From the NCBI GenBank assembly GCA_964633125.1, contig CAZWDN010000003.1:1-57101 (forward strand): DNA of 57,101 nt. Direction: 5' to 3'. Positions within the stretch are counted from its first letter, which is position 1, and every line of letters starts with the position of its first letter. A program made the position numbers and the translations under genes. This stretch comes from an uncultured Pirellula sp. GTDB taxonomy: Bacteria > Planctomycetota > Planctomycetia > Pirellulales > PNKZ01. The notes beneath the pieces are model-generated. The model was not told the origin of the DNA. It saw only the letters and a list, made by a program, of their open reading frames with translations, and did no database searches. Below, in pieces: positions 2,459-41,695 of the stretch.

Positions 2459-4225
2459 ATGTCGGTCGTACGTCGTTACTTCGAAGTCTTCTGTTTGTCG
2501 ATGGTGCTCGCGGGAACGGGCGAAGCGATCGCCTATTCCGCGGAGCCGAGCGACGCGGCCTTTCGCGCGAGCTTGGCGGCCGGCGAGTTTTCGACGGCGC
2601 TCGCCGTCGCCGAAAAGCTTCCGGCAGCCGAACGCGACGCGGCTTTGCGCGATTTGGCGGCCGCGCAGAATCAGGTCGGCGCCGGCGGCGCGTCACTGGC
2701 CACCGTCGCCGCGATTCGCGACGATCGCCTGCGCCAAGACGTACTCGGACAAATGTTCGGCCAGACGTCCGGCACCGGCGGCGGCTTCGCCGGGGATGCG
2801 AACGGGGCGAATCACGGCAACGCGCTCGGAGGAGGCGTGCAGCCCGACTTCGATTCCTTGATCGAACTCATGGAGTCGACCATCGCGCCGGAAACTTGGC
2901 GCACCGCCGGCGGCACGCAAGGCGAGGTGAAATCACATGCCGGCGGCGTATTTGTCGACGCACAAGGCGCGATGCGGCCGATTGTGAACGGCGTCGAACT
3001 CGCCGGGCTGGCGGCGCTACGACGCGACGCGGCCCGCGGCGCGGAGTCCTCGAACGTCCGTCGGCCGTCGCAACTCCGCAAAGTTTCCCTGACGCGGCTG
3101 GAACGCGAGCTACAAATTCGTGCGGCGCGGGGATTGCCGATCGAGGAAGAACTGCAAGCGCTCGCCGGGCTGCAGAAAATCCAATACGTTTTCGTCTACC
3201 CGCAGTCGGGCGACGTGGTGCTCGCCGGCCCCGCGGGCGATTGGTATCTCGGCCGCGAGAACCGCCGCTTGTCCGTGGAAAATGATCGCCCCGTCGTGCT
3301 GCTCGACGATTTGATTACGCTGCTGCGCCGCGAGTTCGCCGCCGGCGGCGAATTCGGCTGCTCGATCGACCCGACCGCCGAGGGTATCCGGCGGCTGACG
3401 GCGTTCGTGACGGAGTCGAACAAGAAGCCGCTCGCGCCCGGCGGCCGCGGCAAATGGACCGACGAACTCGGCAAGCGGCTCGGCACGCAAAACGTCTCGA
3501 TCACGCGCATTGATCCGACTTCGCACGCGGCGCAGGTGCTCGTCGAAGCGGACTACCGCATGAAGCTCCTCGGCATCGGCAAGGAAGAGAGCATCGTGCA
3601 GGTGCCGAGCTATTTGCAGATTGTGGCCGACTCGAAGCCGAAGCAGCCGCCGGCCTTGGACCTGGTGCGCTGGTGGTTCACGATGAATTACGACGCGCTG
3701 TTGACCTCGGCCGAACACGACGTCTACGAGCTGCGAGGTACCGGCGTAAAGCTCTTGGGCGAAAACGAATTCCTCGCGGCCCGAGGAGAGCGCGTCGGCA
3801 CAGGCCAAGCGAACACCGCGAACCAGCTCTTCGCCGCCAACTTCACGACGCACTTCGCCGCGCTGGCCCGGAAGTATCCGATCTACGCGGAGCTGCAAAA
3901 CATCTTCGATTTGGCGCTCGTGGCGGCCGTACTGAAGCACGACGGCGTCTGCGATCGGATCCAATGGCGACGCACCGGGTTGATGAGCCCGGCGGTCTAC
4001 CAAGCCGAGCAATCACCCGCGCCGCGGACCGTGGAAACGGTCGCGGCGAGCCGGGAGTTGTCGCGAACGCTGATCCTCGCCACGGCCAGCGGCGGCGTGA
4101 CCGTCGACGTCGCTTCGATCGCACGGCCGGAAGCCATGCAGATCGACGACCGCGGGCAACTCACGAAAGTGCGACAAAGCCAACGCCCGACGAACGTGCC
4201 CGCACGCGGCTGGTGGTGGGACTAA
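2459..4225 (+). CDS. DUF1598 domain secreted protein (planctomycete-type)
   Basis: AGGAGG SD then ATG 2459 and a signal peptide. Motifs LDDLITLLR, FGCSIDP, EADYRMK, RWWF and YAELQNIFDLALVAA; ends WWD. Confidence 0.7.
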   Translation: MSVVRRYFEVFCLSMVLAGTGEAIAYSAEPSDAAFRASLAAGEFSTALAVAEKLPAAERDAALRDLAAAQNQVGAGGASLATVAAIRDDRLRQDVLGQMFGQTSGTGGGFAGDANGANHGNALGGGVQPDFDSLIELMESTIAPETWRTAGGTQGEVKSHAGGVFVDAQGAMRPIVNGVELAGLAALRRDAARGAESSNVRRPSQLRKVSLTRLERELQIRAARGLPIEEELQALAGLQKIQYVFVYPQSGDVVLAGPAGDWYLGRENRRLSVENDRPVVLLDDLITLLRREFAAGGEFGCSIDPTAEGIRRLTAFVTESNKKPLAPGGRGKWTDELGKRLGTQNVSITRIDPTSHAAQVLVEADYRMKLLGIGKEESIVQVPSYLQIVADSKPKQPPALDLVRWWFTMNYDALLTSAEHDVYELRGTGVKLLGENEFLAARGERVGTGQANTANQLFAANFTTHFAALARKYPIYAELQNIFDLALVAAVLKHDGVCDRIQWRRTGLMSPAVYQAEQSPAPRTVETVAASRELSRTLILATASGGVTVDVASIARPEAMQIDDRGQLTKVRQSQRPTNVPARGWWWD

Positions 4226-4258
4226 AGCCGGGCGCGTCCTTGTCGAACAGGGCCGACC

Positions 4259-5212
4259 TTAGGTGAAGGCGGCCCGTATCTCGGCGAGGAACTTCGGACA
4301 GACTTCGCGCGGGTCTTCATCCTCTTCGTATTCCAATACGATGTAGCCGCGGTAGCCGGCCTCGCGCAGAATCTTCGCCAAACGCGGCATGTCGACCGGC
4401 TCTTTCTTAGCCGTCTTTCGATCGCCGCGTTGCATCACCACCTTGACTTGCGCGTTGATCGCATACGGAGCGATTTGCTCCAACTCGGCGTAGGGATCGT
4501 CGGAATGAAAGTTCCCCGAGTCGAAGTTGATGCCGAGCCAGGGACTTTTTACGTCCTTCACCAGCTTGAGCAAGCCTTGCGGCTCGGCGGTGAGGCCGCC
4601 GTGGTTCTCCAAGGCGAGAAACACGCCGTGCTTGCCGGCGTAGTCACAGCATTCTTCAATGGCCGCGACCGCCAATGCGTGAGCCTGGGCTTCCGTTTGC
4701 CCCTTGTGAACGCTGCCGGAGAAGATGCGTATCACCGGCGCGCCGAGAATTTCGGCGTAGTCGATCCAATTCTTCGTGTAAGCGATTTGCTTGTCACGGT
4801 CCGGACCTTTGTCGTAGGTGAATTCGTTGCCGACGGCGGTGCCCGTCACGTCGAGGCCGAGCTTGAAGCACAGGGCCTTGAGCGAACGCAGATACACGGG
4901 CGTCGGATTTTCCGGAAAATAGTACGACGTCAGCTCGGTGCCGTCGCAGCCGAACTTGGCGCAGTCGGCGACGAAGTCTTCGATGGTCAGCGTCGCTTGC
5001 GGAGCGCCTGCGGGCTTCTTGCCGCGCGAGCTAGGCAAGAAGTTGCGATAACTGTACGCCGCCAAGCTAAATTTAAACTTCGCTTGGCCGTTGCGCGCGA
5101 CGGGTTCGACGGCGTGCGCGGCCCGCGGGGTATCAAACATTCCGGCCAGCGAAAGCCCGGCGGCTGCGGCAGCGGCCGAGGTGAGAAACCCGCGTCGTTC
5201 GATCGAGGCCAT
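4259..5212 (-). CDS. Sugar phosphate isomerase/epimerase (xylose-isomerase-like TIM barrel) with Tat signal
   Basis: RRGFL Tat motif; LALENHGG, NFDSGNF and IVLEYE metal-binding motifs. Confidence 0.85.
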   Translation of the reverse strand: MASIERRGFLTSAAAAAAGLSLAGMFDTPRAAHAVEPVARNGQAKFKFSLAAYSYRNFLPSSRGKKPAGAPQATLTIEDFVADCAKFGCDGTELTSYYFPENPTPVYLRSLKALCFKLGLDVTGTAVGNEFTYDKGPDRDKQIAYTKNWIDYAEILGAPVIRIFSGSVHKGQTEAQAHALAVAAIEECCDYAGKHGVFLALENHGGLTAEPQGLLKLVKDVKSPWLGINFDSGNFHSDDPYAELEQIAPYAINAQVKVVMQRGDRKTAKKEPVDMPRLAKILREAGYRGYIVLEYEEDEDPREVCPKFLAEIRAAFT

Positions 5213-5317: not shown

Positions 5318-6283
5318 TTAGTGCGCGGCGGCTGCGGAAGCGTCAGCGGTTCGCCGACTTAGAATCGCTTGCCATTGCTCGGCCGAAACGAACGACAGGC
5401 CGCAGCAGAACATCGCGACGCAAAACGGCACGAGGCCCGTCAGCACGGCCGTGCCGATCCAGACCGGGATACTCCAAGCGACGAGCAGCGGCCGCGCGGC
5501 ACGGTTCCAAATCAGAACGGCGAACGCCAGATAAAAGAGAATCAGCGACGCTGTCCAAATGTTGATTACATAAGGAAACTGGTACAGCCACCGCAAGTCG
5601 ATGAGGCACGACTCTGGTCGGGCGATAAGCCACCAGACGGCGGTGCCGTTCCACCACACCGCGTTGTATTGCAACGTAGCGCAGAACATCAAGAAGTAAA
5701 TCAGCGACGTGTGGACCTGGATGAGCCGGGTGCTGACCGTCGCCGCATACGCCGGGCGGGCGACGAGCAACGAAGGGTTCGCCGCGCGACGGCGCCAGGC
5801 ATCAATCGAGAGACACGCGCCGCACGGCCCGAAGCAAAGGTAGAACAGCAGCAGCGCGACGACCGGCTCGCCGACGCTCGTGAGCATCGGCCCGCGATGG
5901 AAGTAGGCGAGAAACACGACCAGCGACAAAACCGACGTGATTCGCGTCCAAAGTCCGAGCGTGAAGGCTGCGAGAATCGCCAAGCCGGCGTAGTGCATGG
6001 CCTGCAGGCTGCCGGAATCGGGCGCAAAATCGAGATACGAGAATCGCGTCGACGTGGCCGACGGATAGAGCCGCTCCAGCATCGAAACGCTGACGATGCC
6101 GCTCGGTCCGAAATAGCGGAGCAGATCAAAGCTAAACGTGAGGATCATCCAAAACGCGACTGAGCCGGCGCCAATCCGGAGCATGGCCAAGGGAAGCGGC
6201 TGCGACGGGGTGAACCAGAACCGATTCCAACCGTCGCCAAAGTTGCGAGCCGTGGTGCCGAGGTACCGTGAAACAGCGCTCAT
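5318..6283 (-). CDS. HTTM-domain membrane protein (vitamin K-dependent carboxylase/SdpB-like)
   Basis: Multi-TM protein with LRI, LGLWTR, LSIDAW, RLIQVH..LIYF and WWNGTA motifs. Confidence 0.75.
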   Translation of the reverse strand: MSAVSRYLGTTARNFGDGWNRFWFTPSQPLPLAMLRIGAGSVAFWMILTFSFDLLRYFGPSGIVSVSMLERLYPSATSTRFSYLDFAPDSGSLQAMHYAGLAILAAFTLGLWTRITSVLSLVVFLAYFHRGPMLTSVGEPVVALLLFYLCFGPCGACLSIDAWRRRAANPSLLVARPAYAATVSTRLIQVHTSLIYFLMFCATLQYNAVWWNGTAVWWLIARPESCLIDLRWLYQFPYVINIWTASLILFYLAFAVLIWNRAARPLLVAWSIPVWIGTAVLTGLVPFCVAMFCCGLSFVSAEQWQAILSRRTADASAAAAH

Positions 6284-7252: not shown

Positions 7253-7720
7253 CTACTTAGCCGGAGCGGCAGCGGGAGCGGCCGGCTTCGGGGCCGGGGC
7301 AGCCGGAGCAGCCGGGGCGGCCGGAGCAGCGCCAGCGCAGCTCGGGGCAACCGGGGTGCAGCAAGCCGGTTCGCAGCAGGCCGGAGCACCGCAGCAAGCC
7401 TTTTCACCGCAGCAGCGTTCACGAAGACGAGCGAGCAGGCCCTTGCGGCCGCAGCACGGTTCGTTGCAGCAGGTCGGTTCCGGAGCGCCGCAGCAAGCCT
7501 TTTCGCCGCAGCAACGATCACGCAGACGGCTGAACAAGCCGCCACGGCAACCGCAATCCGAGCAATCCGAACCGCTGCAACCACCATCGCAACCACCGTC
7601 GCAACCGCTGCAACCATGGCAACCGTGACCGGCGACGGCCACATTCTTCTCACCGCCGACGAGGGCGATGCCGACGACCGCGAAGAAAATCGCGATACCA
7701 AAACAAAGAACACGATTCAT
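7253..7720 (-). CDS. Secreted Cys-rich protein with Pro/Ala tail (155 aa, 26 Cys)
   Basis: GGAGG SD before ATG 7720, hydrophobic N-terminus, GC/DGGC repeats, and a duplicated L..RLR.RCCGEKACCGAP unit. Confidence 0.8.
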   Translation of the reverse strand: MNRVLCFGIAIFFAVVGIALVGGEKNVAVAGHGCHGCSGCDGGCDGGCSGSDCSDCGCRGGLFSRLRDRCCGEKACCGAPEPTCCNEPCCGRKGLLARLRERCCGEKACCGAPACCEPACCTPVAPSCAGAAPAAPAAPAAPAPKPAAPAAAPAK

Positions 7721-7918
7721 TCTAAACTCCTCCAACAAAAAACTGGTACGTACCACGCAAATCAATTTGCCGTCTTCTTCCCGCATCCCGCTTTGCGACG
7801 GCAAAACATTCGGGAGCGTAAACGTCTAGCGTTGGTGCAATCGTTGCCGGCAACGAACCCTGATGTGAGCCTTTTCCGATTGCATATTCTGCACCTGAGT
7901 GCACAGGCTAGGATGGAT

Positions 7919-7946
7919 AAGTTAGCATTGAGGGTCGTGTTGTCAA
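7919..7946 (-). promoter_or_regulatory. Sigma70-type promoter
   Basis: Minus strand TTGACA-N16-TAACTT with an extended -10 TG (TGcTAACTT), pointing at the gene starting at 7720. Confidence 0.55.
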
Positions 7947-8056
7947 GAATCAAAAGGCCCGACTGGATGCAATGCGCTGAAAGCGTATTCTGGGGGCAAT
8001 AAGTGAAATTGTCCTACTAGCTTACCACGCCCCTCGTTCGGTGCGGCCCAATGCGC

Positions 8057-9255: not shown

Positions 9256-10725
9256 TTACCCTGCTCCGACGCCCCGATCGAAGGCGTCTTGTTCGCGGCG
9301 GTAGAGTGCTAGCTGCGCTTCAAATTCGGCCGCTGAGATGCGCCAGACCGGGGCGTCGTCCGTGTGGGCGTTACAGTGGGCGGACATCACGCGGTAGAGA
9401 AACTTAAACAGGTGCCGCGGCACCCGCAGGCCGCGAATTCCATCGATCAGCCGTCGGTCGCCGAGCGATTCGTCGAACATATCCTTCAGCGTCGGCTTCT
9501 TCCCGGCGAGCGCGCAGGCCCGCATGCGGGCATTGGCCACGTCGTACAAGGCCTCGCCGGTCCATTCGAGCGTCGGCACAACGTTTTGCTTATCGAGCCG
9601 GGAGCGTTGATAGAAGTCGCGGCTTTCCCGCTCCACGAAGTACGAAAGCTCGATCGGCAGCAGCAGCTTGAACCCTAAGCCCGGGTGCTTGAGGAATTTG
9701 TTGTCGAGCATCGGCCACAGCAGGGCCTTCATCTTATCGGGGGAACCGTTGACCAAGTGCGGCTCGTCCAGCCGATCGACCAGCACGACGATCGCCGGAT
9801 AACCGAGTGTTTGCAGCACGCCTTGGAACTTATGGAGCATTTCAAAGCGATCGTCGGTCCGCTGCTTGTTCGGCAACGGCTGTTGCAGCAGTTCGTCGTT
9901 CGTCAGCCGCATCAGCACTTTGCGTAACAGCCCTGAATTTCGTTCGAGCACGCGCAGGTTCGACGAAATACTCCGGGCCGTCCACCAGCGGCGCGTAAAC
10001 CGCCAAGCCCACGGCAACCATCCGGCCGCCACGACGACGTACGGCCAAACGCTTTCGAGCCAATCCCATTTGCCGAGCGACCCGATGAGCCCGCAAACCA
10101 CGGCCGTCACCAGGACGCCGATCAGCATCGGCTGCCAACTCTTCCAGGTGCGGAACTTGAGCGCCCGGCGGAGCCGATGCCAACGCACGCGAAACGGCTC
10201 GGCCGTCGATTGATCGTAGCAAGCGGCCAGCAGCAACAGATCGCGGGCCTCGTGCCGCGAGAGTTTGGCGACGTCCGGCTTCGCGTCGTCGCCCGCGGGC
10301 TGCACGACGCCGTCGACCAGTTTCGTCACGCCGAGCGCGAGGATCGAATCCATATGGTCCCAGAGCATCCATTGCTCCAACACCTTCTCCGGCGGGCGAT
10401 TGCCCCAGAGCGTATCGCGAAACCGATCGAGAAACGGATTGAAGTCGTCATACTGAATGACGAACGCCCGCTTCAACGGGCTGCGACGGTTGTGCTCGGC
10501 CAAATGCCGGGCGATCTGCAAACGCAGGGCGGTTTTGCCGGAACCCTTCTCGCCAAACACCACCGAAGTCGCCGGCTCCTGCGGGTCGCCGTAGATCTTG
10601 TCCCAACTGGGGTGATACGTACCGGCAATGCAGTGTTCCTTGAACACCGGATCTGTCTGGGCGTCTTCCTCGGCGAACGGATTCTTGCCCACGCCGTGAT
10701 GTTCGAGGAACTGCTGCAGCTTCAT
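9256..10725 (-). CDS. P-loop NTPase with two inserted TM helices (KAP-like architecture)
   Basis: Walker A GEKGSGKT, Walker B AIVVLVDRLDE, with two hydrophobic helices between them. Start taken at ATG 10725. Confidence 0.7.
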   Translation of the reverse strand: MKLQQFLEHHGVGKNPFAEEDAQTDPVFKEHCIAGTYHPSWDKIYGDPQEPATSVVFGEKGSGKTALRLQIARHLAEHNRRSPLKRAFVIQYDDFNPFLDRFRDTLWGNRPPEKVLEQWMLWDHMDSILALGVTKLVDGVVQPAGDDAKPDVAKLSRHEARDLLLLAACYDQSTAEPFRVRWHRLRRALKFRTWKSWQPMLIGVLVTAVVCGLIGSLGKWDWLESVWPYVVVAAGWLPWAWRFTRRWWTARSISSNLRVLERNSGLLRKVLMRLTNDELLQQPLPNKQRTDDRFEMLHKFQGVLQTLGYPAIVVLVDRLDEPHLVNGSPDKMKALLWPMLDNKFLKHPGLGFKLLLPIELSYFVERESRDFYQRSRLDKQNVVPTLEWTGEALYDVANARMRACALAGKKPTLKDMFDESLGDRRLIDGIRGLRVPRHLFKFLYRVMSAHCNAHTDDAPVWRISAAEFEAQLALYRREQDAFDRGVGAG

Positions 10726-10816
10726 GGGTGATCCGTCACGATGGCAGGCACGAAAGTGTGCCACTGCCGGGCAGGCCGGCAGCGGCACACATATTCAGGC
10801 GGCAAACTCCGAGTCG

Positions 10817-11383
10817 CTACTTCGCCTTGAGCCCTTCGACCATCTTCATGAAGCCCGGCTCGGCGGCGGCGATGGTCTTCTCCGGACCATACAGCTTGAC
10901 GAAGTACTGGCCCCCGTCTTTGGTCGAAATAATGGCGCCGAGCATCCGATAGTTGGGACGTTCGGTTCCGGGCCCCGGCACGAACGGGCCCGGTTTATCA
11001 AGGTAAACTCCCTTGATGTTGACGACATGCACCGGCTGGTCCGCGACCTTGAGTTGCTTGACGTCGGCTTTCACTTCGCCGTCGTCCGATTTGAACTGGC
11101 CTTTCCAGCGATCGATGTTGGCTTCGACGCCGCCGCCTGCCCCCATCACCGTCACGCGGCCGGCGAATTCGTCCCCTTCGGCCTTCGGCGTTTCAAATTC
11201 ATATTCGACGATCCGCGACCGGGGCTCTTTCGCTTCCCAATCGGCCGGGGCGACCAGCACGAACTTCTCGCCGATGTTAAACGGCGTCCCTTCCGCGGCC
11301 ACGGCTTGCGACGCGGCGCCGAGCACGACCAGCGCGCCCGCCGCTACCAAACGAAACGAAGTCATCGACGTCAGGCTCTTCAT
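10817..11383 (-). CDS. Hypothetical secreted protein
   Basis: Signal peptide ending AVAA. Contains GGGVEANIDRWKGQF and YFVKLYGP segments; codon usage matches neighbouring genes. Confidence 0.7.
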   Translation of the reverse strand: MKSLTSMTSFRLVAAGALVVLGAASQAVAAEGTPFNIGEKFVLVAPADWEAKEPRSRIVEYEFETPKAEGDEFAGRVTVMGAGGGVEANIDRWKGQFKSDDGEVKADVKQLKVADQPVHVVNIKGVYLDKPGPFVPGPGTERPNYRMLGAIISTKDGGQYFVKLYGPEKTIAAAEPGFMKMVEGLKAK

Positions 11384-11416
11384 CTTCAGCTCCCCTGAGG
11401 AAAGGCTATTCGTTAC

Positions 11417-12145
11417 TTAAAGCGTTTGCATTTCGGTCGAGCGGCGGCTCGTCTCCTCGTCGGCCGGATTCGGGCCGCGCGAGATCACAAAGTACGTCAC
11501 CCAAGCCAAAGCCGCGACCAACAGCACCAGCACGACGACCGTCGCGAGGTACGTGCCGTTAGAACGGCGTTGGTAGTATATCGCCGCCGCCGGCGGGGCG
11601 GAACCGACCGGCGCATGGCCGCCGGGCGTAGCCGTTGGTGCGGGCATCGGCGGCTGCGGGGCTGCGGCGACGGGCGATCCGGCCGACAGGTGCGGCCAGA
11701 CTGAAGCAGCCGGCCGCCACTCCGGCCAGTCCTGTCGCCAAACCATGGACGCCCCGACAATCCGTCCCTCGTGCAGCCATTGAAACATGGTCGCTCCGTC
11801 GGCCGGACCGAACGGCTGCCCGCCGTCGGCTGCGGAAACGTACCAGACCGCGGTCGGGTTCTCCGCCAGCGGGTCGACCGCCGGAGCCGATTGGATCGCG
11901 ACGATCCGCCCGACGGGGGCCGCAACCTCGGTGTAAGCCTGCGCTGCGGAAGGTTGCGCGGAGCCGGCGGGATTCGCGCTCGTCGCCGTTGGCGATTCTT
12001 CCGCCTCCGGCCGGTCGGGCAGCGTACTAGTTAGCGGAATCTGCACCGACGCGCCGCACTTCGGGCAGAGGCCGCGCTTCCCGGCCTGATGCTCTTTGAC
12101 GTTGATCCGCTTCGTGCAGGCCGGGCAAATAAATCGAATACCCAT
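11417..12145 (-). CDS. Zinc-ribbon + GYF_2 (DUF4339) domain membrane protein
   Basis: N-terminal CPAC...CPKC, the segment WYV...GQPFGP...WL.EGRI....VWRQDW.EW, and a C-terminal TM. Confidence 0.8.
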   Translation of the reverse strand: MGIRFICPACTKRINVKEHQAGKRGLCPKCGASVQIPLTSTLPDRPEAEESPTATSANPAGSAQPSAAQAYTEVAAPVGRIVAIQSAPAVDPLAENPTAVWYVSAADGGQPFGPADGATMFQWLHEGRIVGASMVWRQDWPEWRPAASVWPHLSAGSPVAAAPQPPMPAPTATPGGHAPVGSAPPAAAIYYQRRSNGTYLATVVVLVLLVAALAWVTYFVISRGPNPADEETSRRSTEMQTL

Positions 12146-12240
12146 CCGTCGGCGTTCTCGCGTGAGTGGTGCTGAACTGAAGATTATAGCCAAGGGCCGC
12201 AGGTCGGGTCGAACGGCATCAGGCCCGACATGGAAACTCC

Positions 12241-12415
12241 ACTTACGTCGATTGGTCAGACCGCTCACTGCGTACATAACTCGCGTTATGTACGCACCCC
12301 TTGTGGGTTTTGGGGTTGTGCGTACATAAGCCCGAGTTATGTACGCACGGCCGGATCGGCCCGTCGACGTAAGTCTGCAAAGTTGCAGGCACACTCCGTG
12401 TGCCTGCAACTTTGC
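12241..12415. repeat. Cluster of nested perfect inverted repeats (REP/BIME-like)
   Basis: 11-bp IR at 12241-12251/12364-12374 encloses 12-bp stems at 12269-12296 and 12318-12348. An 18-bp stem with a 3-nt loop lies at 12377-12415. Confidence 0.85.
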
Positions 12416-12530
12416 CTGCCATCCCGCAACCTACCGCCTTCCTCGGCAAACCTCCATGTCATTTTTGGCCGGCTGCTATACTGTCGGCGACTCGCCGGAT
12501 CTCGCTAGGTCGCACGCGGAGGAAGCTCCC

Positions 12531-13778
12531 TTGAAATCGTTCCATTGCCGCCGCTCATTCCGTCTTGCGTTGCTCGCAGCGCTGTCCGTTTGCAACGGTG
12601 CACCGCTGATTGCCGCCGAGCCGTCGACTTCGCTCACATCGACAGAGTTCTTCACGCGCCGCATCTTGCCGATCGCGCAGGCGCAGCGAGCTTCCAGTTG
12701 CACCGAGTGTCATTTTTCCGGCGTGGAACTCAAACAATACGTGCTGGCCGACGAAGCCGCGACGTTCGCCGCGCTGCGTCGCGCAGGCTTGATCGACGTC
12801 GCCCGGCCGGAACATTCGAAGCTGTTGCAATTCATTGCAAGGAAGCCGGAGCGCGAAGACCCGACGCTGGCCCGCGTGCGCACAGAAGAGCTCGCGGCCT
12901 TTCAAGGCTGGATCGCGGCGGCCGTTCGCAATCCCGAACTATTGGCAAGTTCACCGTCGCCCCAATCGATCGGCACCGCGTTGCCGCCCGAGGTGATTCG
13001 CCACGCGCGTCGCGACCACGTGCTGAACGCCTTCATCGAGAACGTCTGGGTCGAGATGGAACGCTGCGTCAATTGCCACTCGCCCGAGCGCAATCAGCGT
13101 TTCCGCAAAGAGCACGGCGAGCAAGTTTCTTGGATCACGCCCCGCGATCCCGCGGCCACGCTCCAATTCCTCGCCGATCAAGGACTGATCGACGTGGATG
13201 AACCGGAGAAGAGCTTGTTGCTGCTCAAGCCGCTCGGCGTCGTCGAACATGCGGGCCATGTGAAATTCGTCATCGGCAGCCGGACCGACAGACAGTTTCG
13301 CAGCTTTCTGAACGACTATGCCGCAGCCGTCCAAGGAAAATACCGCACGGCGAGCGAACTACCCAAGCCGCGCGAGCAAATCACGATCGCCACGGGCCAG
13401 CAGCTTCGGGTGACCGATCTACCGCTTGATTACGGCGGCCGCCTGATGCGCGTGCTACTGCACCGCCGGGAAGGAAACGGCTGGAGCAAGCGCCCGATCG
13501 CCACGGGCGACAGCGGCATCAACCCGAAGAACGGCCAATGGCAGAACCCGGTTTGCGAATTGGTCGACCGCCAAGACGCGACGCCGGAGCGACTGACGAA
13601 CCCGCGATTGCTTCCCGGCGAGCGGTACCTCGCCAAGCTCTACATCGACCGCGACAACCGCGCGGCCAAGGATTCGGCCTTTGAGTTCACGGAAAAGGAC
13701 CTCTTCGCCGAAATCGAATTCGCCGGCGAATGGAAGCCGGGCTACCTGACGCCGAAAATCATCTCGGCGAAGGACTAG
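12531..13778 (+). CDS. Secreted di-heme c-type cytochrome (planctomycete cytochrome c-like)
   Basis: GGAGG SD before TTG 12531, a signal peptide, and CTECH and CVNCH heme motifs. Confidence 0.7.
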   Translation: MKSFHCRRSFRLALLAALSVCNGAPLIAAEPSTSLTSTEFFTRRILPIAQAQRASSCTECHFSGVELKQYVLADEAATFAALRRAGLIDVARPEHSKLLQFIARKPEREDPTLARVRTEELAAFQGWIAAAVRNPELLASSPSPQSIGTALPPEVIRHARRDHVLNAFIENVWVEMERCVNCHSPERNQRFRKEHGEQVSWITPRDPAATLQFLADQGLIDVDEPEKSLLLLKPLGVVEHAGHVKFVIGSRTDRQFRSFLNDYAAAVQGKYRTASELPKPREQITIATGQQLRVTDLPLDYGGRLMRVLLHRREGNGWSKRPIATGDSGINPKNGQWQNPVCELVDRQDATPERLTNPRLLPGERYLAKLYIDRDNRAAKDSAFEFTEKDLFAEIEFAGEWKPGYLTPKIISAKD

Positions 13779-13814
13779 GCGAGCGTCGAGCCGTAAGGCC
13801 GACGTGTGCCTGAG

Positions 13815-14042
13815 CTATTTGCCCAGCACTTCTTCCTGCGGCGGCTCTTCTTGTTCCAAGAGCTCTTGGGCTTTGCGGAGCATCCACACCGCGTCGTCCG
13901 ATTCGAGGCACGGGCTGTAGGCGATGAAGCCGTCGTCGGGCACGGCGCCTTTGTAAATCGTGCAAACATGGACAAACTTCACCGGGCGGCGGCCGAGTTC
14001 TTCGAGAATCTGTTCCGTGGTGGCCAGTTCTAGTTCGATCAT
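13815..14042 (-). CDS. Small hypothetical protein (75 aa)
   Basis: AAGGA SD before ATG 14042. Plausible acidic small protein filling the gap between genes. Confidence 0.5.
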   Translation of the reverse strand: MIELELATTEQILEELGRRPVKFVHVCTIYKGAVPDDGFIAYSPCLESDDAVWMLRKAQELLEQEEPPQEEVLGK

Positions 14043-14262
14043 GGGCTCGGTCCTTACACTCGCGCGGTGAATGTCGCAGGTGCTCCGGCGTTCCGACGAC
14101 ACTTCGTCGCACGCCGTCCCTGGTAAACTCTACCACCAACCATAGAGCGCGAATGTGCACAGAGTTTATCGCCGTCGGAAAAACGCCGAGGATCATTCTG
14201 TAACGATTATGACGGCGGTTTTCCCACCCGATGGAGCCGCGGGTAAGCGACGCCGCGCGCCG

Positions 14263-15000
14263 TTACGGCACATTGTGAAACACGAACTGCATGAGGTTCT
14301 TCGTGCCGATCGTGCCGGCGGTCGAGAGCACTTCGCCGGCTTGAAAGCCCGCCGCCTGACCGTAATGCTCGGCCAGCGCGCGAACGCGCGAGAACACATG
14401 CGATTTGGCCGGCGGAAACTGCGTGGCGTAGCAACGAATACTGTCGAGCTTTTGCTCCAACGTTTCGGAGATATCCACGACGACGTGCCCCGCCCCCGGC
14501 GGCAACTCCAGCGAGCTGAAGTTGAGCGTGTAGTACAAGAGCGACGGCACCGTATGCACGGGCAGGCCTTCGAAATGCTCGTCCCATTTCGTGAGCCGCG
14601 AATAGAACACGGCCCCCTCGGTAATCAGCATCGCTTGATGATGGTCGGGCGACGCCAGCGGCGTCTTCTCGCCGAAGCCGATGATCAGCCGCGGCCGGAA
14701 CTTGCGAAACTGCTTCGCCAGCGCCGTACGGGCCTCGAACGAATCGAACAAGCGCCGATTGGGCAAATCGAGTTGCACGCGCGCGTGAACGCCGAGCGTT
14801 GCGGCGGCCGCGCGAGCTTCGGCGGCCCGCACTTCGGGGCCGGGCGAAAGCGGCGTCGGTTCGCCGTCGGTCAGATCGATAATGCCGACCTTGAACCCCT
14901 GCTTTACGAGCGAGGCCAACGTCCCGCCGCAAGCAATCTCCACATCATCGGGATGCGCCCCGACGGCAATCACATCAAGCTTCAAATCATCTTCGGCCAT
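14263..15000 (-). CDS. bshB1: PIG-L family deacetylase, BshB1-like
   Basis: [26 protein letters not shown] and SPDH motifs. Confidence 0.75.
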
Positions 15001-15015
15001 GGAACACATTCGCGG

Positions 15016-15523
15016 ATCAGAGAAGGAGATAGGGAGATCGGAGGAGATATTGGAGACGGGAGATCGAGCTAATATTTCGGTGCGTGAGCTTCCAAGCCGA
15101 CGCGCCGAAAGTCGGCCTTGTCCTTGAAAAAAGTGACGAGCAAACCTGTCTTGAGTCCCGCCGCCTTGAGATACGAACGGAGTTGCGAGTAGTGAGCCTT
15201 CGTCAACTTCTCCACGGCTTTCAATTCCACAATCAGACTGTCGCGAACCACTAGGTCGAGTCGGTGCCTACCGACGAGTTCGCTGTTGTAGCAGATATCA
15301 ATTTCGTATTCGGTTTTGAATGGAATCTCGGAATTCTTCAAATCAACAGCTAATGCCCGATGGCAAATATTTTCCAAAAAGCCGGGACCAAGCGCCTTAT
15401 GGACGCGAATGATGGACGCGATCACCTCCTGCGAAAGCTTGTCGACGGAATAGTCTTTGAGAGGTTCTCGCCCGTCCCGTCTTACCCGATCTCCAGAATC
15501 TCCGGCCATCCCCTTCTCTGAAA
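15016..15523 (-). mobile_element. GxxExxY cassette bounded by imperfect inverted purine/pyrimidine arms
   Basis: tcagagaagg at 15017 and its reverse complement at 15512-15521, with ggagat-periodic arms. The interior is visibly more AT-rich than the flanks. Confidence 0.55.
15069..15509 (-). CDS. GxxExxY protein (PD-(D/E)XK-like)
   Basis: [14 protein letters not shown] (motif Tyr replaced by Cys), RLDLVV...IVELKAV, and QLRSYLK...GLLVTF. Confidence 0.85.
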
Positions 15524-21489: not shown

Positions 21490-21570
21490 CAATGTGGATT
21501 GGGTTGTGTGCCGCTGCCTGCTTGCCCGGCAGTGCGACCGGAAGTTGGATTTAAACCTTTGAGATATTCC

Positions 21571-24500
21571 ATGATGCTCGTCCGCCGGCGAATCCTGTTC
21601 CTCACCATTTTGGCCGTTGTTTTATGCAACGTCACTTTCGCATTCGCCGCCGACGAAGAGGATGAAGACGAACCGAAGGTCGCGCCGGGCCTCGTCGCTA
21701 CGTTCGCAACACGCGACCTTGCCGCGCCGGTCGCGGCACGCATCGACAACGAAGTGCAATACGTGTGGGGCGCCGCTCGGCCCGATCTGCGTTTGCCCGC
21801 CGGTCCGTTCGTTGCGCGCTGGCAAGGGCTCCTTTTCACGCAAGCAGCGGGCGACTACCGATTCCACATCTATGCCGGCGGAGGGCGCGTCGAACTGAAG
21901 CTGAAGGGGCAACCGCTGCTTGCCGTCGAAGCGGCGGAACCGGCCTGGCATGTCAGCGAGCCGGTCAAGCTCGGCTACGCCCACTCGCCGTTGGAGTTGA
22001 CGTTTCAAAAGACCGGTGCCGACGCCGTACTGAAGCTTGATTGGAGCGGTCCGCAATTCGCCGTCGAACCGATTCCCGATCGGCACCTCTTTCACGACCC
22101 CCAGCAAACGCCAAGTTCGGCGTTCGACGAAGGGCGCTCGCTCGTGCGCATGCTCCGCTGCGCGGCCTGCCACCAAATACCGACGGAGCAAGACCGCCTG
22201 CCGGCCCCGGCGCTGACGCACCTCCGCGGCAACCTGCACCCGGAGTGGATCGTGGACCATTTGACGACCTCCGCCACCCCATACCAGCCCCGACGCGCAA
22301 GCGAGGGGACTTCGGCGGATGACGCGTCGCGAACGCCCCCCTCACCCCCGGCCCCTCTCCCGCAAGGGGCGAGGGGAGATACGGCGCTCACGCGCCGCAT
22401 GCCGCATTTCGCTCTCTCGCAAGTCGACGCCGAGGCCCTCGCCGCCTACCTGCTTGATGCCTCCCAGCCGTCGCCGGAGGTAAAGCTTCCCAAAGTACAG
22501 GCCGACGAACCGAAGCCGGCCGCCGCCGCGCCGGTGCATCTCGATCCGCGCGCCGCGGAGGAAGCCAAACGCGTCAAAGCCAAAGCGAAAGCGCGCACTT
22601 CCGCCAGCGTGCGCGAAGGAGAACTCTTGGCTCGCAGCGTCGGCTGCTTGGCCTGCCATACGATCGGTTCGCTCGGCACGGCGACCCTCTTCACCGGCGG
22701 CGACCTCTCGACCATCGCGCAAAAGCGTCCCGCCGAGTTTTTTCTGCGCTGGCTCGACAATCCGTCGGCGCTCAATGCGCAGCACCGGATGCCGGTCTTC
22801 AAATTGTCAAAGCTGGAACGCGACGATCTGACGGCGTATTTGAGCACGCTAAGAGTCGCCAACGCCCCTGCGACGACACACCAGCCCCGACGCGCAAGCG
22901 AGGGGACTTCGGCGGATGACGCGTCGCGAACGCCCCCCTCACCCCCGGCCCCTCTCCCGCAAGGGGCGAGGGGAGATAAGAAGACGGAACCCAAGAGCGA
23001 CAAGGCGCTCGTCGAGCGCGGGCGCAAACTGTTTGTCTCGCAATCGTGCACGGCCTGCCATCGCGGACCGGTCGAATTGCCGCCGGCTAACGCCGCGCCG
23101 GCCCTGACCGCGTCGCGCATCGCGCAGTTCGGCGACGATCCGGCTTCCTCCTGTTTCGGCGAACCGCGCGCCGAGAAGCCGAGGCCCGGATACCGCCTCG
23201 ATGCGCGACGAAGGCAAGCGATCGTCGAGTACCTCCACATGGCGATGGCGCCCGAGACAAGCGAATCGCTCGCGCTCGACGATCGCTTCGTGCTGCAAGA
23301 GCGTAACTGCACGGCCTGCCATGCCCGCGGCCTGGGGCCAGGGCTCGCCGGCGAAGCGCCGCGCATCACGGCGGCCGAACCGGAACTCTTGGCCGTGCAG
23401 CCGGCGCTGCTGCCGCCGTCGCTCAACGGCGTCGGCGACAAACTCACCGAAGCCGCTCTCGATGACGCCCTCCTCTTAAAGCACAATCCGCTGCGCCCTT
23501 GGCTTCGTGTACGCATGCCGAAGTTCCCGCTGGCCGCGGCAGAACTTGCGTCGCTAAAGGGACATCTCGTCAACCACGATCGCATTCCCGACCTGCCGCC
23601 GCCGCCCGAGGCCGCAACGGCCGGCGACGACGAAACCGCCCAACGTCTCGCGGCCCGCCGTCTGGTGACGGCCGACGGCTTCGGCTGTACGAGTTGCCAT
23701 AAGATCGGCTCGTCGGAACCGGCCGGCATCACGAACATCGCGGCCCACGGCACCGACCTCACGCTCTTGGGCGACCGCATTCGCAAGCCGTGGTTCGACC
23801 GTTGGGTTCGCAATCCCTCGCGTATCATTCCCCGCATGGAGATGCCGGCGATCCAACTACCGGTCAAGGGAGTGATGCACGACGACGTCAACCTGCAACT
23901 GGCGAGCGTTTGGAAAGTGCTCAACGAGCCCGGCTTCACGCCGCCGCTGCCGAACCCCGTGCGGATCGTCCGTTCGCGCAACGTGCCCGGCATTAAGGAA
24001 CGGGCCAACATTCTGACCGACGTGTTCGTAGTCGACGGCAAAACCTACGACAGCGCGATCGTGATCGGCTTGCCGAACCGGCACAACGTGCTGTTCGACT
24101 TGGAAACGAATCACCTCGTCGCGTGGTGGACGGGCGATACGGCGCTGCAACGGACAAAAGGAAAAAGTTGGTACTGGGAAGTCGGCGGAGCGATGGTCCT
24201 TGCCCAGGACAGCGTCATCAAAGACCGATCGATCGCCTCGGAACTGCGCAAGCAAAATCGCGACCCGAACAGCGACGCCGAAGAAGGCCCATTTCCGACG
24301 TCGCAGAATCTTGCGCTGCTGGATCAGTTTGGGCATTCCGAAAATGGAGTCGACCTGAATTATCGCCTGTCGTTCGACGCTTCGTCGGCGAATGCCGAGC
24401 CAAACTTGACGGTACGGCAAAGCTTCGCGCCGATCGCCGGCGGATTCCGACGGCGTTGGGAAGTTCAAGGCAAGACTTCGCTTCCGCAACTCGCCTTGCT

Positions 24501-26187
24501 TGTAGCGGCCGGCAAACTGTTTCAGTTCGGCGACAACGATCGGTCCGTGGTCGCCGCGAGCCTGCCGGGCAAACCTCGCTTGATACTGCGATCGCCGGGA
24601 AATTGGCGCATCGACGCCGATGGCGGCGTTTTCGTCGATCTCGCAACGGCCGAATCGACCGTCATTGAAATCGACTACCTCGTCGACCTCCCCGTCGACA
24701 CGTTTCCCGTGGAAATGCCCGCTGTGCCGAACCCGCCTGCCGTAAAGATCAACGTCGTTCCCGGCTTCGAAGCGGTGCAGCTGCCGCTCGGCATTGCCGA
24801 AATGCCGACGGGCCTCGCTTGGCGCAAAGACGGTTCGCTCGTGCTCACTTCGCTCAAGGGGCGCGTAATCGTAGCGCGCGACACGAACGGCGACGGCCTC
24901 GAGGATCAACTCCAAACCGTCAGCGACGATCTCGCGGCGCCGTACGGGATCGCCGTCGCCGAAGAAGACGGCCGCGAGGTTCTCGACGTCGTCAACAAGT
25001 ATGCCCTACTCCGCCTCTTTGACGACGATGCCGACGGCTACTACGAACGCTCCGTCGTCGCCGCGAGCGGCTGGGGACACACGGAAGACTATCACGATTG
25101 GGCGGTCGGACTGCCGAAGATTCCCGGCGACAAGCTTGGCTATTACGTCGGCCTGCCGTGCCAGCAAGACGATCGCGCGCCGGCCAAGGCGGCGCTGCGC
25201 GGTCAAGGGCTCCGGCTCCTCGCACGTACGCCGACGCTCGATGACCCGCGCCGTTTCACCGTCGAACCGTTCTGTGGCGGCTTGCGCTTCCCGATGGGCC
25301 TGGCCGTGAACAAGGCCGGCGACCTCTTTGCGAGCGACAACCAAGGAAACTACAACCCGTTTAACGAGATCAACCACCTCGTCGACGGCAAGCGCTACGG
25401 CTTCATCAACAAGCTCGAAGCGAAGCCGGGCTTTTCGCCGCCGGTGGAATCGCCGGCCGTCGATCTGCCCCACCCCTGGACTCGCAGCGTGAACGGAATT
25501 TGCTTTCTCGACACTCCGGACAAGGTGCGCGCCGCGCGCAAGGCCGCCGGCGAAAGCGAAGACCTCTTCGGTCCCTTCGAAGGACACATGCTCGGCTGCG
25601 AGTTCAATTACCGCTCGCTGTTTAGGATGGCGCTCGAACAAGTCGACGGGGTCTATCAAGGATCGGCGTTCCCCCTCAACGAGTTCCCCGCAGTAGGCCA
25701 AGCGACCTTTGAAGGCCCGACGGTGTGCGAAGTCGCCCCGGACGGCGACCTCTACATCGGCAATCTCCAAGACAGCGGCTGGGGCGGCGGTCGCAACACA
25801 GGCTCGCTCGTGCGCATGCGACCGAGCGGCGAACTTCCGGCCGGCATGGCCGAGATCCGCGCCGAAACCGACGGCTTCACGATTCTGTTCACGCAACCCG
25901 TCAGCCGCGAAGCGGCGGCCGAGCGCGCCGCCTACACCATCGAAATGTTCCGCCGGATTTCCACGCCGCAGTACGGCGGCAACGACGTCGACCGCCAATC
26001 CGTCAAGGTGTTGCAAGCCCGGGTCGCCGACGACGGCCGGAGCGTGCGTCTCACCGTCGACAAATTGAAGCCCGGCTTCGTCTACGAGTTCCACTTGGCG
26101 AATCTCGCCCCGCGGGCTCCGACGGGGGAAGCGAAATTCTTTCCGGCCGAAGGCTTCTACACGCTGAAACGGCTGATTCTTCGATAA
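21571..26187 (+). CDS. Large penta-heme c-type cytochrome with PA14-like domain and dehydrogenase-like propeller
   Basis: Signal peptide, PA14-like F.ARWQG segment, five CxxCH motifs (CAACH, CLACH, CTACH, CTACH, CTSCH), and a C-terminal propeller (GLRFPMGL, DNQGNY). Confidence 0.8.
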   Translation: MMLVRRRILFLTILAVVLCNVTFAFAADEEDEDEPKVAPGLVATFATRDLAAPVAARIDNEVQYVWGAARPDLRLPAGPFVARWQGLLFTQAAGDYRFHIYAGGGRVELKLKGQPLLAVEAAEPAWHVSEPVKLGYAHSPLELTFQKTGADAVLKLDWSGPQFAVEPIPDRHLFHDPQQTPSSAFDEGRSLVRMLRCAACHQIPTEQDRLPAPALTHLRGNLHPEWIVDHLTTSATPYQPRRASEGTSADDASRTPPSPPAPLPQGARGDTALTRRMPHFALSQVDAEALAAYLLDASQPSPEVKLPKVQADEPKPAAAAPVHLDPRAAEEAKRVKAKAKARTSASVREGELLARSVGCLACHTIGSLGTATLFTGGDLSTIAQKRPAEFFLRWLDNPSALNAQHRMPVFKLSKLERDDLTAYLSTLRVANAPATTHQPRRASEGTSADDASRTPPSPPAPLPQGARGDKKTEPKSDKALVERGRKLFVSQSCTACHRGPVELPPANAAPALTASRIAQFGDDPASSCFGEPRAEKPRPGYRLDARRRQAIVEYLHMAMAPETSESLALDDRFVLQERNCTACHARGLGPGLAGEAPRITAAEPELLAVQPALLPPSLNGVGDKLTEAALDDALLLKHNPLRPWLRVRMPKFPLAAAELASLKGHLVNHDRIPDLPPPPEAATAGDDETAQRLAARRLVTADGFGCTSCHKIGSSEPAGITNIAAHGTDLTLLGDRIRKPWFDRWVRNPSRIIPRMEMPAIQLPVKGVMHDDVNLQLASVWKVLNEPGFTPPLPNPVRIVRSRNVPGIKERANILTDVFVVDGKTYDSAIVIGLPNRHNVLFDLETNHLVAWWTGDTALQRTKGKSWYWEVGGAMVLAQDSVIKDRSIASELRKQNRDPNSDAEEGPFPTSQNLALLDQFGHSENGVDLNYRLSFDASSANAEPNLTVRQSFAPIAGGFRRRWEVQGKTSLPQLALLVAAGKLFQFGDNDRSVVAASLPGKPRLILRSPGNWRIDADGGVFVDLATAESTVIEIDYLVDLPVDTFPVEMPAVPNPPAVKINVVPGFEAVQLPLGIAEMPTGLAWRKDGSLVLTSLKGRVIVARDTNGDGLEDQLQTVSDDLAAPYGIAVAEEDGREVLDVVNKYALLRLFDDDADGYYERSVVAASGWGHTEDYHDWAVGLPKIPGDKLGYYVGLPCQQDDRAPAKAALRGQGLRLLARTPTLDDPRRFTVEPFCGGLRFPMGLAVNKAGDLFASDNQGNYNPFNEINHLVDGKRYGFINKLEAKPGFSPPVESPAVDLPHPWTRSVNGICFLDTPDKVRAARKAAGESEDLFGPFEGHMLGCEFNYRSLFRMALEQVDGVYQGSAFPLNEFPAVGQATFEGPTVCEVAPDGDLYIGNLQDSGWGGGRNTGSLVRMRPSGELPAGMAEIRAETDGFTILFTQPVSREAAAERAAYTIEMFRRISTPQYGGNDVDRQSVKVLQARVADDGRSVRLTVDKLKPGFVYEFHLANLAPRAPTGEAKFFPAEGFYTLKRLILR
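22283..22381 (+). repeat. 99-bp intragenic palindromic element, copy 1
   Basis: Identical to 22880-22978. Read in frame within (Y)QPRRASEGTSADDASRTPPSPPAPLPQGARGD(T). Confidence 0.9.
22880..22978 (+). repeat. 99-bp intragenic palindromic element, copy 2
   Basis: Identical to copy 1 at an offset of 597 bp (199 codons). Confidence 0.9.
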
Positions 26188-40692: not shown

Positions 40693-41634
40693 ATGAGCGA
40701 CGAACGCTTCCAACGCTTGGTCGACGACACCTATGCCGAGGCCTTCCGTAGCATCTACGCGGAGGTACTGATCACGGCTCGCGATCGCACCTGGCTCGAC
40801 CACGCGGTACAAGCGGCGACGGGTAACGCCTCGAGCACGATTTTCTGCGACTGCGAAGCGGGGCTCGATCGCTACGTCGGCCCCGGCGGCGATGAATCGT
40901 TCGCCACGCCCGACGGCCGCCCCGGAGCGATCGTGCAATTCCACGTTCCACGCTTTCACAAAGATCGGGCCGCGAGACTCGAGCGTTCGTTGTTGGTGCG
41001 GCTGAGCCAGAACGTGCTCACCTGCCCGACGGCCGCGTGCTTCAACTTGCTCGACACGGAAGAGTATTTCAAGCTCGGTCGCAAGATTGCGTTCTTCGGC
41101 GACGGCCACCAAAAACGAGCCGTACGGCACGGCCGGCGAGTCTGGGTGATTCCGATTCTCGGCGGCGAGTTCATGCTCGACCGGCGCTTCGGCTTTCGCG
41201 ACGGTCTCATGGGAGGCAACGTTTGGTTTTTCGGCGATTCGGTCGATTCGGCCCTGGATGCGGCCTGCCGAGCACGTGATGCTGCGGCAGCAACGCCGGG
41301 CGTCATCCTGCCGTTTCCCGGCGGCATTGCCGGAAGCGGTTCGAAAGCCGGGAGCCGCTATTCGTTTTCTATCGCCAGCACGTACGCCGAATTCTGCCCG
41401 ACGCTGCGGGAAGAACTCGGCGAGCGCTCCAAGCTGCCGGCCGGAGTCGCTAGCGTGATGGAGATCATCCTGAACGGTCGTGATTTACCGACGATTGCCG
41501 AGGCGACGCGCCGCGCCGTGGAAGCGGCCCTCGACGCGCCGGGCCTGGTTCGAATTTCCGCAGGCAATTACAGCGGCCGTCTCGGCAAGAGCTTCATCTA
41601 TCTCTACCCGGAACGCCAACTCGCTGCGACATGA
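40693..41634 (+). CDS. ftr: Formylmethanofuran:tetrahydromethanopterin formyltransferase (Ftr/FhcD)
   Basis: DDTYAEAF, TPDGRPG, QNVLTCPT.A.FN, FGDG, PFPGGI..SGSK.GS.Y, EI..NG and ISAGNY.G.LG motifs. Confidence 0.93.
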   Translation: MSDERFQRLVDDTYAEAFRSIYAEVLITARDRTWLDHAVQAATGNASSTIFCDCEAGLDRYVGPGGDESFATPDGRPGAIVQFHVPRFHKDRAARLERSLLVRLSQNVLTCPTAACFNLLDTEEYFKLGRKIAFFGDGHQKRAVRHGRRVWVIPILGGEFMLDRRFGFRDGLMGGNVWFFGDSVDSALDAACRARDAAAATPGVILPFPGGIAGSGSKAGSRYSFSIASTYAEFCPTLREELGERSKLPAGVASVMEIILNGRDLPTIAEATRRAVEAALDAPGLVRISAGNYSGRLGKSFIYLYPERQLAAT

Positions 41635-41666: not shown

Positions 41667-41695
41667 AGTCCCTTCGCTTGCGCATCGGGGCTAGT
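41667..41695 (-). repeat. Intergenic REP-like arm related to the 99-bp intragenic element
   Basis: Reverse complement actagccccgatgcgcaagcgaagggact matches the first 29 nt of the element at 26/29 positions. Confidence 0.7.

Follow-up and report, generated by a model that had tools for sequence, protein, structure and literature searches.

The window analysed here, a 57,101-nt stretch of an uncultured Pirellula sp. (contig CAZWDN010000003.1), contains a cytochrome gene in which a 99-bp tract occurs twice without a single mismatch. We find that the tract is a local composite of three parts: a repetitive extragenic palindrome (REP) of ~40 nt, designated element A, a 27-nt unique spacer, and a ~42-nt hairpin repeat, designated element B. 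The explanation that we consider most probable, and hold with good confidence, is that the REP A and the unrelated family B are old residents of the gene, that they are translated as parts of it, and that the two copies have become identical by recent gene conversion.

The 99-mer ACCAGCCCCGACGCGCAAGCGAGGGGACTTCGGCGGATGACGCGTCGCGAACGCCCCCCTCACCCCCGGCCCCTCTCCCGCAAGGGGCGAGGGGAGATA was found at 22283-22381 (copy 1) and 22880-22978 (copy 2), both on the + strand and with 0 mismatches. No further copy with up to 3 mismatches was found in the window, where 0 matches are expected by chance. The copies are spaced by 597 bp, which corresponds to 199 codons, and both lie in frame in an open reading frame (ORF) at 21571-26187 (+), to which each adds 33 codons (amino acids 238-270 and 437-469, respectively). 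The product is a secreted protein of 1538 amino acids (aa) of a Pirellulales type, composed of PA14, five-CxxCH cytochrome c, and DUF7133 beta-propeller parts (Pfam matches PF00034, PF13442, PF07691, and PF23500); it has 315 homologues, and the gene is syntenic in relatives. Copy 1 falls within a loop of the first haem domain, with CAACH (aa 197) before it and RRMPHF (aa 275) after it; copy 2 is in the linker past haem domain 2, between HRMPVF (aa 405) and the third CxxCH (aa 493). The unique segment between the copies (22382-22879, +) encodes haem domain 2 (CLACH ... HRMPVF). An initial annotation of this DNA had described two identical 99-bp copies, 597 bp apart and in frame, each adding 33 codons to a planctomycete protein, one copy before the Met of the RMPHF motif of haem 1 and the other in the linker after haem domain 2. 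Exact matching confirmed the copies, the planctomycete host is supported, and the placement agrees with both the motif positions and the loops of the AlphaFold2 model described below.

At site 1, element A is a REP singlet at 22271-22310 (+) that consists of the head ccgccaccccATAC, CAG, and the hairpin CCCC-GA-CGC-GCAA-GCG-A-GGGG-AC, and fits the consensus of 151 copies. The REP singlet at site 2 (22868-22907, +) has the 5' head ctgcgacgacACAC, which is unlike the site-1 head. The 27-nt spacer TTCGGCGGATGACGCGTCGCGAACGCC follows at 22311-22337 (+) and is found identically at 22908-22934. Element B of site 1 (22338-22379, +) is composed of CCCCTCACCCCCGG, the hairpin CCCCTCTCCC-GCAA-GGGGCGAGGGG, and AGA, in accordance with the consensus of the dispersed copies, and the second copy is at 22935-22976 (+). 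The 99-bp tract comprises the 3' part of A, the spacer, and B. As a whole it is no palindrome and contains two separate hairpins; thus, of the palindromic element that had been postulated, only the hairpins remain, while its reading as a composite of a REP-like arm and a GCAA-loop hairpin was borne out as elements A and B. The flanks, which had been regarded as unrelated, are so farther out, but the diverged 5' head of element A makes up the 12-14 nt that precede each copy. Neither a direct duplication at the junctions (cat/ACCAG...GATA/cggc versus cac/ACCAG...GATA/agaa, slashes marking the tract ends) nor terminal inverted repeats of the 99-bp unit were found. A miniature inverted-repeat transposable element was rejected because the unit has neither terminal inverted repeats nor a target-site duplication. 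A scan of the window against Rfam at gathering thresholds gave no match.

Since repeats longer than k are often misplaced by short-read assemblers, identical copies in one gene could in principle reflect a repeat that was collapsed or duplicated by the assembler. The probability of such an artefact is practically negligible. Logan contigs from four metagenome runs of four studies cover 21900-22312, 22352-22905, and 22949-23400 and thereby support all four junctions, at which the initial annotation had proposed a check in reads. One contig of 554 nt (22352-22905), present in the four runs, joins copy 1 to copy 2 through haem domain 2, which is conserved in all orthologues. The same layout was present in two independent assemblies of a sister strain (L115 and L116), of which the gene DNA is 98.1% identical to that of the window. 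Copy 1 of the sister strain is the same as copy 1 of the window, whereas its copy 2 differs from that of the window by one base, which distinguishes the two copies of the sister strain from each other at 1 position in 99. The 99-bp copies are not a misassembly. The tract-bearing stretch was also present in wastewater and sludge metagenomes of many studies.

The perfect identity over 99 bp, the unrelated farther flanks, and the in-frame length would fit a single coding-compatible mobile element that was recently transposed into two sites of the gene, as the initial annotation had suggested. We regard this as very unlikely for the following observations. An 81-nt unitig at 22283-22363, which is made of the end of A, the spacer, and the start of B, had depths of 19.9, 17.6, 9.8, and 14.3 in the four runs, with flanks of ~8.7, 8.4, 7.2, and 9.1. 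Because the unitig that includes the spacer is only at ~2x the flank depth, the tract is present in about two copies per genome, at these two places only; the window has no other copy of the 99-mer, and A and B belong to separate families. Composites of this family with the form A-N(10-40)-B were found neither in ~1 Mb of related loci nor in metagenome contigs; the metagenome scan gave one chance-like match (L122), unrelated to the cytochrome gene, and has little weight because the window's own sequence, which the pattern would have matched, was not recovered, and the window strain is therefore not in that collection. In addition, the identity between the copies begins inside element A and no target-site duplication accompanies it. 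Finally, as described below, A and/or B are already present at both sites in orthologues, with different spacers.

Element A belongs to a large family. Its consensus of ~40 nt consists of a head (cc.ccacc.cAYAC), C/TAG, and the hairpin CCCC-GA-MGC-GCAA-GCG-A-GGGG-RC, with ACAT or GCAT at the far end in the copy consensus; of the 151 unique copies from which it was derived, 117 have TAG and 21 have CAG. When one genome per species was scanned, at least 107 stretches with the A core were found, almost all of them in four or five Pirellulales species represented by metagenome-assembled genomes (MAGs), and the MAGs that hold most of them are JAFLCO01 UWPOB_PLAC3, JASGKB01 5N533, PNKZ01 Pirellula sp. 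PB1.007, and JAEUIN01. All neighbouring pairs of A less than 200 nt apart (37/37) were head-out (+/-) inverted doublets with a modal spacing of 23-27 nt. Such a doublet folds with -39.7 kcal/mol (z -10), and the hairpin of the singlet at site 1 with -7.1 kcal/mol (z -2.6). No clear compensatory changes in the A stem were seen by eye in 168 A copies; this was not a formal test, and we make no claim from it. A third copy of A in the window (41668-41693, -) has 3 mismatches and the TAG form, and is intergenic, 34 nt past the stop codon of ORF 40693-41634, which is the usual location of a REP.

The 168 A copies are predominantly extragenic. To classify A and B copies as coding, we used the whole-ORF GC1/GC2/GC3 pattern (G+C content at the three codon positions) of real genes (0.69/0.48/0.77) in ~1 Mb of sampled loci. 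Clearly intragenic copies of A or B were found in the cytochrome orthologues and in one other gene only, which encodes a B12-binding radical SAM protein. In three species (L010 5237-7324, L026, and L051) the two domains of the latter are joined by a linker that contains an in-frame A doublet, or REPIN (REP doublet forming a hairpin); at L051 an additional B-like segment was observed further downstream. A copy of B in a 288-aa ORF of L091, which has no Pfam match, could not be classified as to its coding status, and other seemingly intragenic cases of A or B were upstream of the true starts of sulfatase-like genes. Upstream of such genes, the MAG JAFLCO01 contains a long repeat of more than 400 nt (L066 ~3802-4600, -; L105 ~2829-3300, +; L108 ~7400-7998, -), which carries a copy of A and a copy of a B subfamily (CCTTCTCCC[G/A]CAAGGGGAGAAGGG) 127-300 nt apart and gives rise to spurious N-terminal ORF extensions.

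Inspection of the DNA between pairs of A doublets revealed a gene of 154 aa with a head-out A doublet on either side at L014 (5783-6525), L117 (3890-4576), and L121 (3684-4371), as well as at L118-L120. At the intact genes (L117-L120 and L121) the doublets are located ~35 nt before the start codon and ~34 nt after the stop codon. The neighbourhood of the gene at L121 is unlike that at L117-L120, and L117 and the sister strain contig L116 were obtained from one sample. The protein contains an HUH-like motif (NHIHVVV) and a tyrosine motif (DYVLNRQ). Its best NCBIfam match is the REP-associated tyrosine transposase (RayT; REP_Tyr_transpos, E 6e-6), and it matches Pfam Y1_Tnp (E 3.5e-4). Of its 588 homologues, the nearest are intact 154-aa proteins, many of which were named RayT by the Joint Genome Institute (JGI). 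Element A is thus the REP of a REPIN-RAYT system in a group of Pirellulales. In L014, a nanopore-based MAG, the gene has a frameshift near 6083, and reading through it did not raise the family score; several short-read contigs stop right after the gene, as expected at repeats. A fragment at L112 was rejected as RayT because it showed a weak C-terminal tblastn match only (with an approximate E. coli RayT query), no Pfam match, and no homologue in a word search.

Element B is far more abundant than A. Its G/C-rich consensus of ~42 nt is CCCCTCACCCCCGG followed by CCCCTCTCCC-GCAA-GGGG[C/A]GAGGGG-AGA, which forms a hairpin with a bulge, although the hairpin alone was no better than that of shuffled sequences (z -0.8). 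In the four DNA runs the depth over 22338-22379 was 700-900, with ~8 in the flanks, and B was carried by more than 100 contigs per run in unrelated contexts. We found 31 unique copies in the sample; in the sampled loci B occurs in intergenic regions, in both orientations. Direct tandems, in which B is followed by ~13 nt ending in ACACAG and a truncated B, were frequent (L003 11305-11381, L024, and many metagenome contigs). Outside the cytochrome gene, none of 24 B copies was within 100 nt of A in the ~1 Mb of related loci.

The history of the two sites was examined by fetching syntenic orthologous loci (L001-L007 and L115) and reading the DNA at both sites. A and B are present together at both sites in the window, its sister strain L115, and L006. 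L001 has A and B at site 1 and B only at site 2, and L004 has A only at both sites. At site 1, L002 has only a reversed B, L003 only A, and L005 only a reversed B; at site 2, L002 has A and a B into which a small additional hairpin is nested, L003 has A and B with a truncated second B, and L005 has A only. L007 has no element at either site. A and/or B are therefore present at both sites in syntenic orthologues of which the proteins are 69-98% identical to that of the window, and the elements are absent from all orthologues at <=65% identity. Orthologues that carry the segment, which the initial annotation had named, for distant ones, as evidence against its own reading, were found among moderately distant ones, down to 69%, but not at <=65%. 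A neighbour-joining tree based on 1079 ungapped columns showed two clades, with L007 outside. Clade I is made of ((window, L115), L001), (L006, L004), and L002, and clade II of (P0008, (L005, L003)) and P0005; members of the two clades are ~73% identical over the ungapped columns (69% is the value to the window protein otherwise). Given the tree and the states at the sites, A was present at both sites in the ancestor of clades I and II. B has been gained or lost several times. A reversed B in place of A at site 1 was found in L002 and L005, and L003, the 92%-identical sister of L005, keeps A. By this comparison the elements are old residents with turnover rather than recent arrivals, and the proposal of a recent insertion was abandoned. 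In L006 (MAG GCA_964267865), the orthologous cytochrome was called as two ORFs (10001-13822 and 14024-14623; 1273 aa and 199 aa), which suggests a frameshift or a disrupted C-terminal part.

The same two positions are kept across species that are 69-98% identical to the window protein, and they are in flexible loops, where linkers belong. It could thus be argued that the segments are Pro/Gly/Arg-rich protein spacers that are conserved for cytochrome function. This is highly improbable, since the peptide is not conserved: the frames differ (HQPRRASEG versus TSPEAQARGH), as do the orientations (PSPPAPLPQGARG versus LPSPLAGEGPGVRG). Peptide LPSPLAGEGPGVRG, found in L002 and L005, is the exact reverse complement reading of B, whereas PSPPAPLPQGARG represents the other orientation. 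The site-2 A of L003 and L005 is in another frame (TSPEAQARGH), in which the TAG of the family is kept and is read AC-TAG-C. The A copies read H-Q-P-R-R-A-S-E-G have CAG instead of the consensus TAG because TAG would be a stop codon there. Since the same DNA is read in different frames and orientations, it is the DNA and not the peptide that is conserved. Furthermore, the segments are missing in the orthologues at <=65% identity, and the same sequences are mostly intergenic repeats.

Our preferred explanation attributes the identity of the two copies to one recent ectopic gene conversion, with site 1 as donor and site 2 as recipient, by which it is best explained, although we infer both the event and its direction from comparison of sequences. 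Outside the window and its sister L115, no two spacers are alike, whether compared between the sites of one genome or between genomes. The site-2 spacers of L006, L004, and L002 share a motif (...TCGAAG.AGC) that is lacking in the window, of which the spacer instead starts with TTCGGCGG, as at site 1 of L001. The end of site 2 is AGA-T-AAGAAG in the window versus AGA-G-AAGAAG in the orthologues, and this T is of the site-1 type. The boundary of the identity falls inside A, so that the heads ccgccaccccATAC and ctgcgacgacACAC stay different. The A head at site 2 is a homologue of those found at this site in L006, L002, and L004; therefore A would have been at site 2 before the conversion. Local conversion that keeps the copies identical had been the second proposal of the initial annotation, and it is now favoured by the spacers, the A heads, and the unitig depth.

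In the proposed course of events, two loops of the cytochrome, both disordered and variable in length, would have received single copies of A and B long ago. These copies would have been kept through speciation with ongoing turnover, in which B was gained, lost, and flipped and the reading frames shifted, and they would simply be translated as parts of the host gene, with TAG changed to CAG in the frame used in the window. A tract of site 1 that includes the 3' part of A, the spacer, and B would then have been copied onto site 2, probably anchored by A on the left (~26 nt) and by B on the right (~42 nt). Since the whole tract would have been converted, the 99 bp are identical, including the otherwise unique spacer. 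The conversion would have occurred between the divergence from L001 and the later divergence from L115, in which one difference has arisen since.

Several points weigh against this explanation. The scores of the RayT-family protein are under the curated cut-offs (26 versus 80 bits and 21 versus 23), and the A-flanked gene is documented for relatives, as well as for a sample in which the sister strain is also present, but not for the genome from which the window comes. The head of A is AYAC-TAG, with CTAG beside the stem, instead of the GTAG or CGTC tag of classified REPs. The sampled loci showed no transposase associated with B and no B-flanked RayT that would account for how B moves; B is a putative mobile element solely because it is dispersed and has been gained, lost, and inverted at the two sites. 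The order A-spacer-B at two sites of one gene, unseen elsewhere, may reflect earlier rounds of intragenic copying. We infer the translation of both segments rather than observe it. Lastly, A and B are 88-100% identical between genomes of which the four-fold degenerate sites are only 57-68% identical. This is not explained by pure neutral residence and needs either constraint at the nucleotide level or repeated homogenisation against the genomic repeat pool. The spacers adjoining A and B are unalignable between genomes.

The contrast between the elements and the four-fold sites is one reason to consider that the hairpins are kept in the ORF by selection at the level of nucleic acid. They might act as mRNA structures that pause translation or export between the haem domains or stabilise the transcript, as sites for RayT or gyrase, or as cassettes for RayT or recombination, for which the 199-codon spacing would let haem domain 2 be lost or gained in frame. 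The direct repeats do flank one domain in frame, and the A doublet of the radical SAM gene is in frame exactly at the interdomain linker in three species. If true, such selection would explain both the 88-100% identity near silent-site saturation and the REPIN at the interdomain linker of a second gene. Conversion against more than 100 genomic copies could, however, equally yield this conservation. Close relatives differ as to whether an element is present and how it is oriented, and none has lost the gene; no match to Rfam was obtained. A metagenome scan for an in-frame deletion allele of domain 2 gave 0 matches, which is uninformative as the window strain is not in that collection. Altogether, we regard selection on the nucleic acid as unlikely.

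Element A is open in 4 of 6 frames and B in 5 of 6. Both sites are length-variable in the alignment of orthologues. An AlphaFold2 model of aa 160-560, based on an alignment of 61 sequences, had a mean predicted local distance difference test score (pLDDT) of 81, with the haem domains above 90, whereas the segments were coil with pLDDT of 49-61 (copy 1) and 42-54 (copy 2). Both segments are thus predicted to be in disordered, permissive loops, and they probably have no function at the protein level. The view that coding-compatible repeat DNA adds peptide segments to this protein, as in Rickettsia, is supported, with the segments putatively translated. A tryptic peptide spanning a junction is predicted to be ASEGTSADDASR. 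In four runs labelled as RNA, no joints that skip the elements were found, although the coverage was thin and carry-over of DNA is possible. Contigs of these runs at 22019-22367 (X27) and 22694-22942 (X30) cross both left junctions, each running out of the flank, over A and the spacer, and on into B. This is weak evidence, consistent with retention of the elements in the mRNA. At 33 aa, each segment is much too short to be an intein.

Two further features of the window were observed. A third short palindromic repeat, TGTGTGCCGCTGCCTGCTTGCCCGGCAGTG, is present at 21505-21534 (+) and 10762-10791 (-), the two copies differing by 2 mismatches; the former is located in the 81-nt spacer directly upstream of the start of the cytochrome gene. 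A small gene of the PDDEXK_3 (GxxExxY) type at 15069-15509 (-), between the PIG-L and TP_methylase genes, is missing in L001. The alignment of the window with the sister contig L115 (98% identical) fails only over this stretch, which has the appearance of a cassette subject to rapid replacement.

These results document a REPIN-RAYT system with the unusual head AYAC-TAG in Pirellulales and indicate that a redox protein that looks essential can retain in-frame REP singlets in many species. How a repeat turns coding-compatible can be seen at a single locus, at which CAG replaces TAG solely in the frame that TAG would terminate, and the same repeat DNA is read in three frames and two orientations. 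As intragenic repeats undergo conversion, old insertions can look recent. For annotation, the peptides PSPPAPLPQGARG, LPSPLAGEGPGVRG, and HQPRRASEG in planctomycete proteins represent repeat DNA and not domains.

In-frame repeats within genes have been described in other bacteria. Rickettsia palindromic elements (RPEs; Ogata et al. 2000, 2002; PMC186582) are, according to PMC10969869 and PMC3733652 in which they are cited, palindromic repeats inserted in frame in genes. Intragenic REPs encoding 20-30 aa were reported in several species, including two REP insertions in one ORF (uvrA) of Opitutus terrae, a bacterium of the PVC (Planctomycetes-Verrucomicrobia-Chlamydiae) group, and numerous tyrosine transposases flanked by repeats were noted in Rhodopirellula baltica (Di Nocera et al. 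2013, PMC3733652). The cytochrome qualifies as a REP-decorated protein, a phenomenon already described for the RPEs of Rickettsia and the REPs of Opitutus terrae, and the bacterial lineage is new. As with the RPEs, palindromic repeat DNA is in frame in a functional gene, and the fold tolerates its peptide, which occupies a linker or a surface loop. As far as these citing sources describe them, RPEs are single units of ~100-150 bp that are dispersed whole, in frame in many unrelated genes, each with a conserved peptide. The 99-bp unit is in contrast undispersed, is made of two short repeats and a unique spacer, and its repeats are read in several frames and orientations. A single unit of the RPE type was rejected because the 99-bp unit occurs only twice, both times in the cytochrome gene, and its parts are dispersed separately.

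The putative conversion resembles ectopic gene conversion between dispersed repeats, in that a tract between short identical anchors would have been copied to a place 597 bp away and the divergence erased. It differs in that both partners are inside one ORF and the length of the tract keeps the frame. The closest parallel of element A is the REPIN-RAYT system, of which the defining features were set out in PMC3116915 (Bertels & Rainey 2011) and PMC3337134. Like the REPs of such systems, A is an imperfect palindrome of 30-40 nt with an unpaired conserved head and hundreds of mostly extragenic copies, forms inverted doublets of fixed geometry, has a single small Y1/HUH gene of the RayT family between doublets, and persists at orthologous positions over long periods. 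It differs in its head, AYAC-TAG, where the REP super-families have an unpaired GTAG or CGTC tag at one end (PMC3733652), and in its RayT, a distant family member that scores under the curated cut-offs. Pirellulales is a new lineage for such a system, the host gene is likewise new, and the in-gene singlets of A are joined with a second repeat family at two sites that appear to have been homogenised by conversion.

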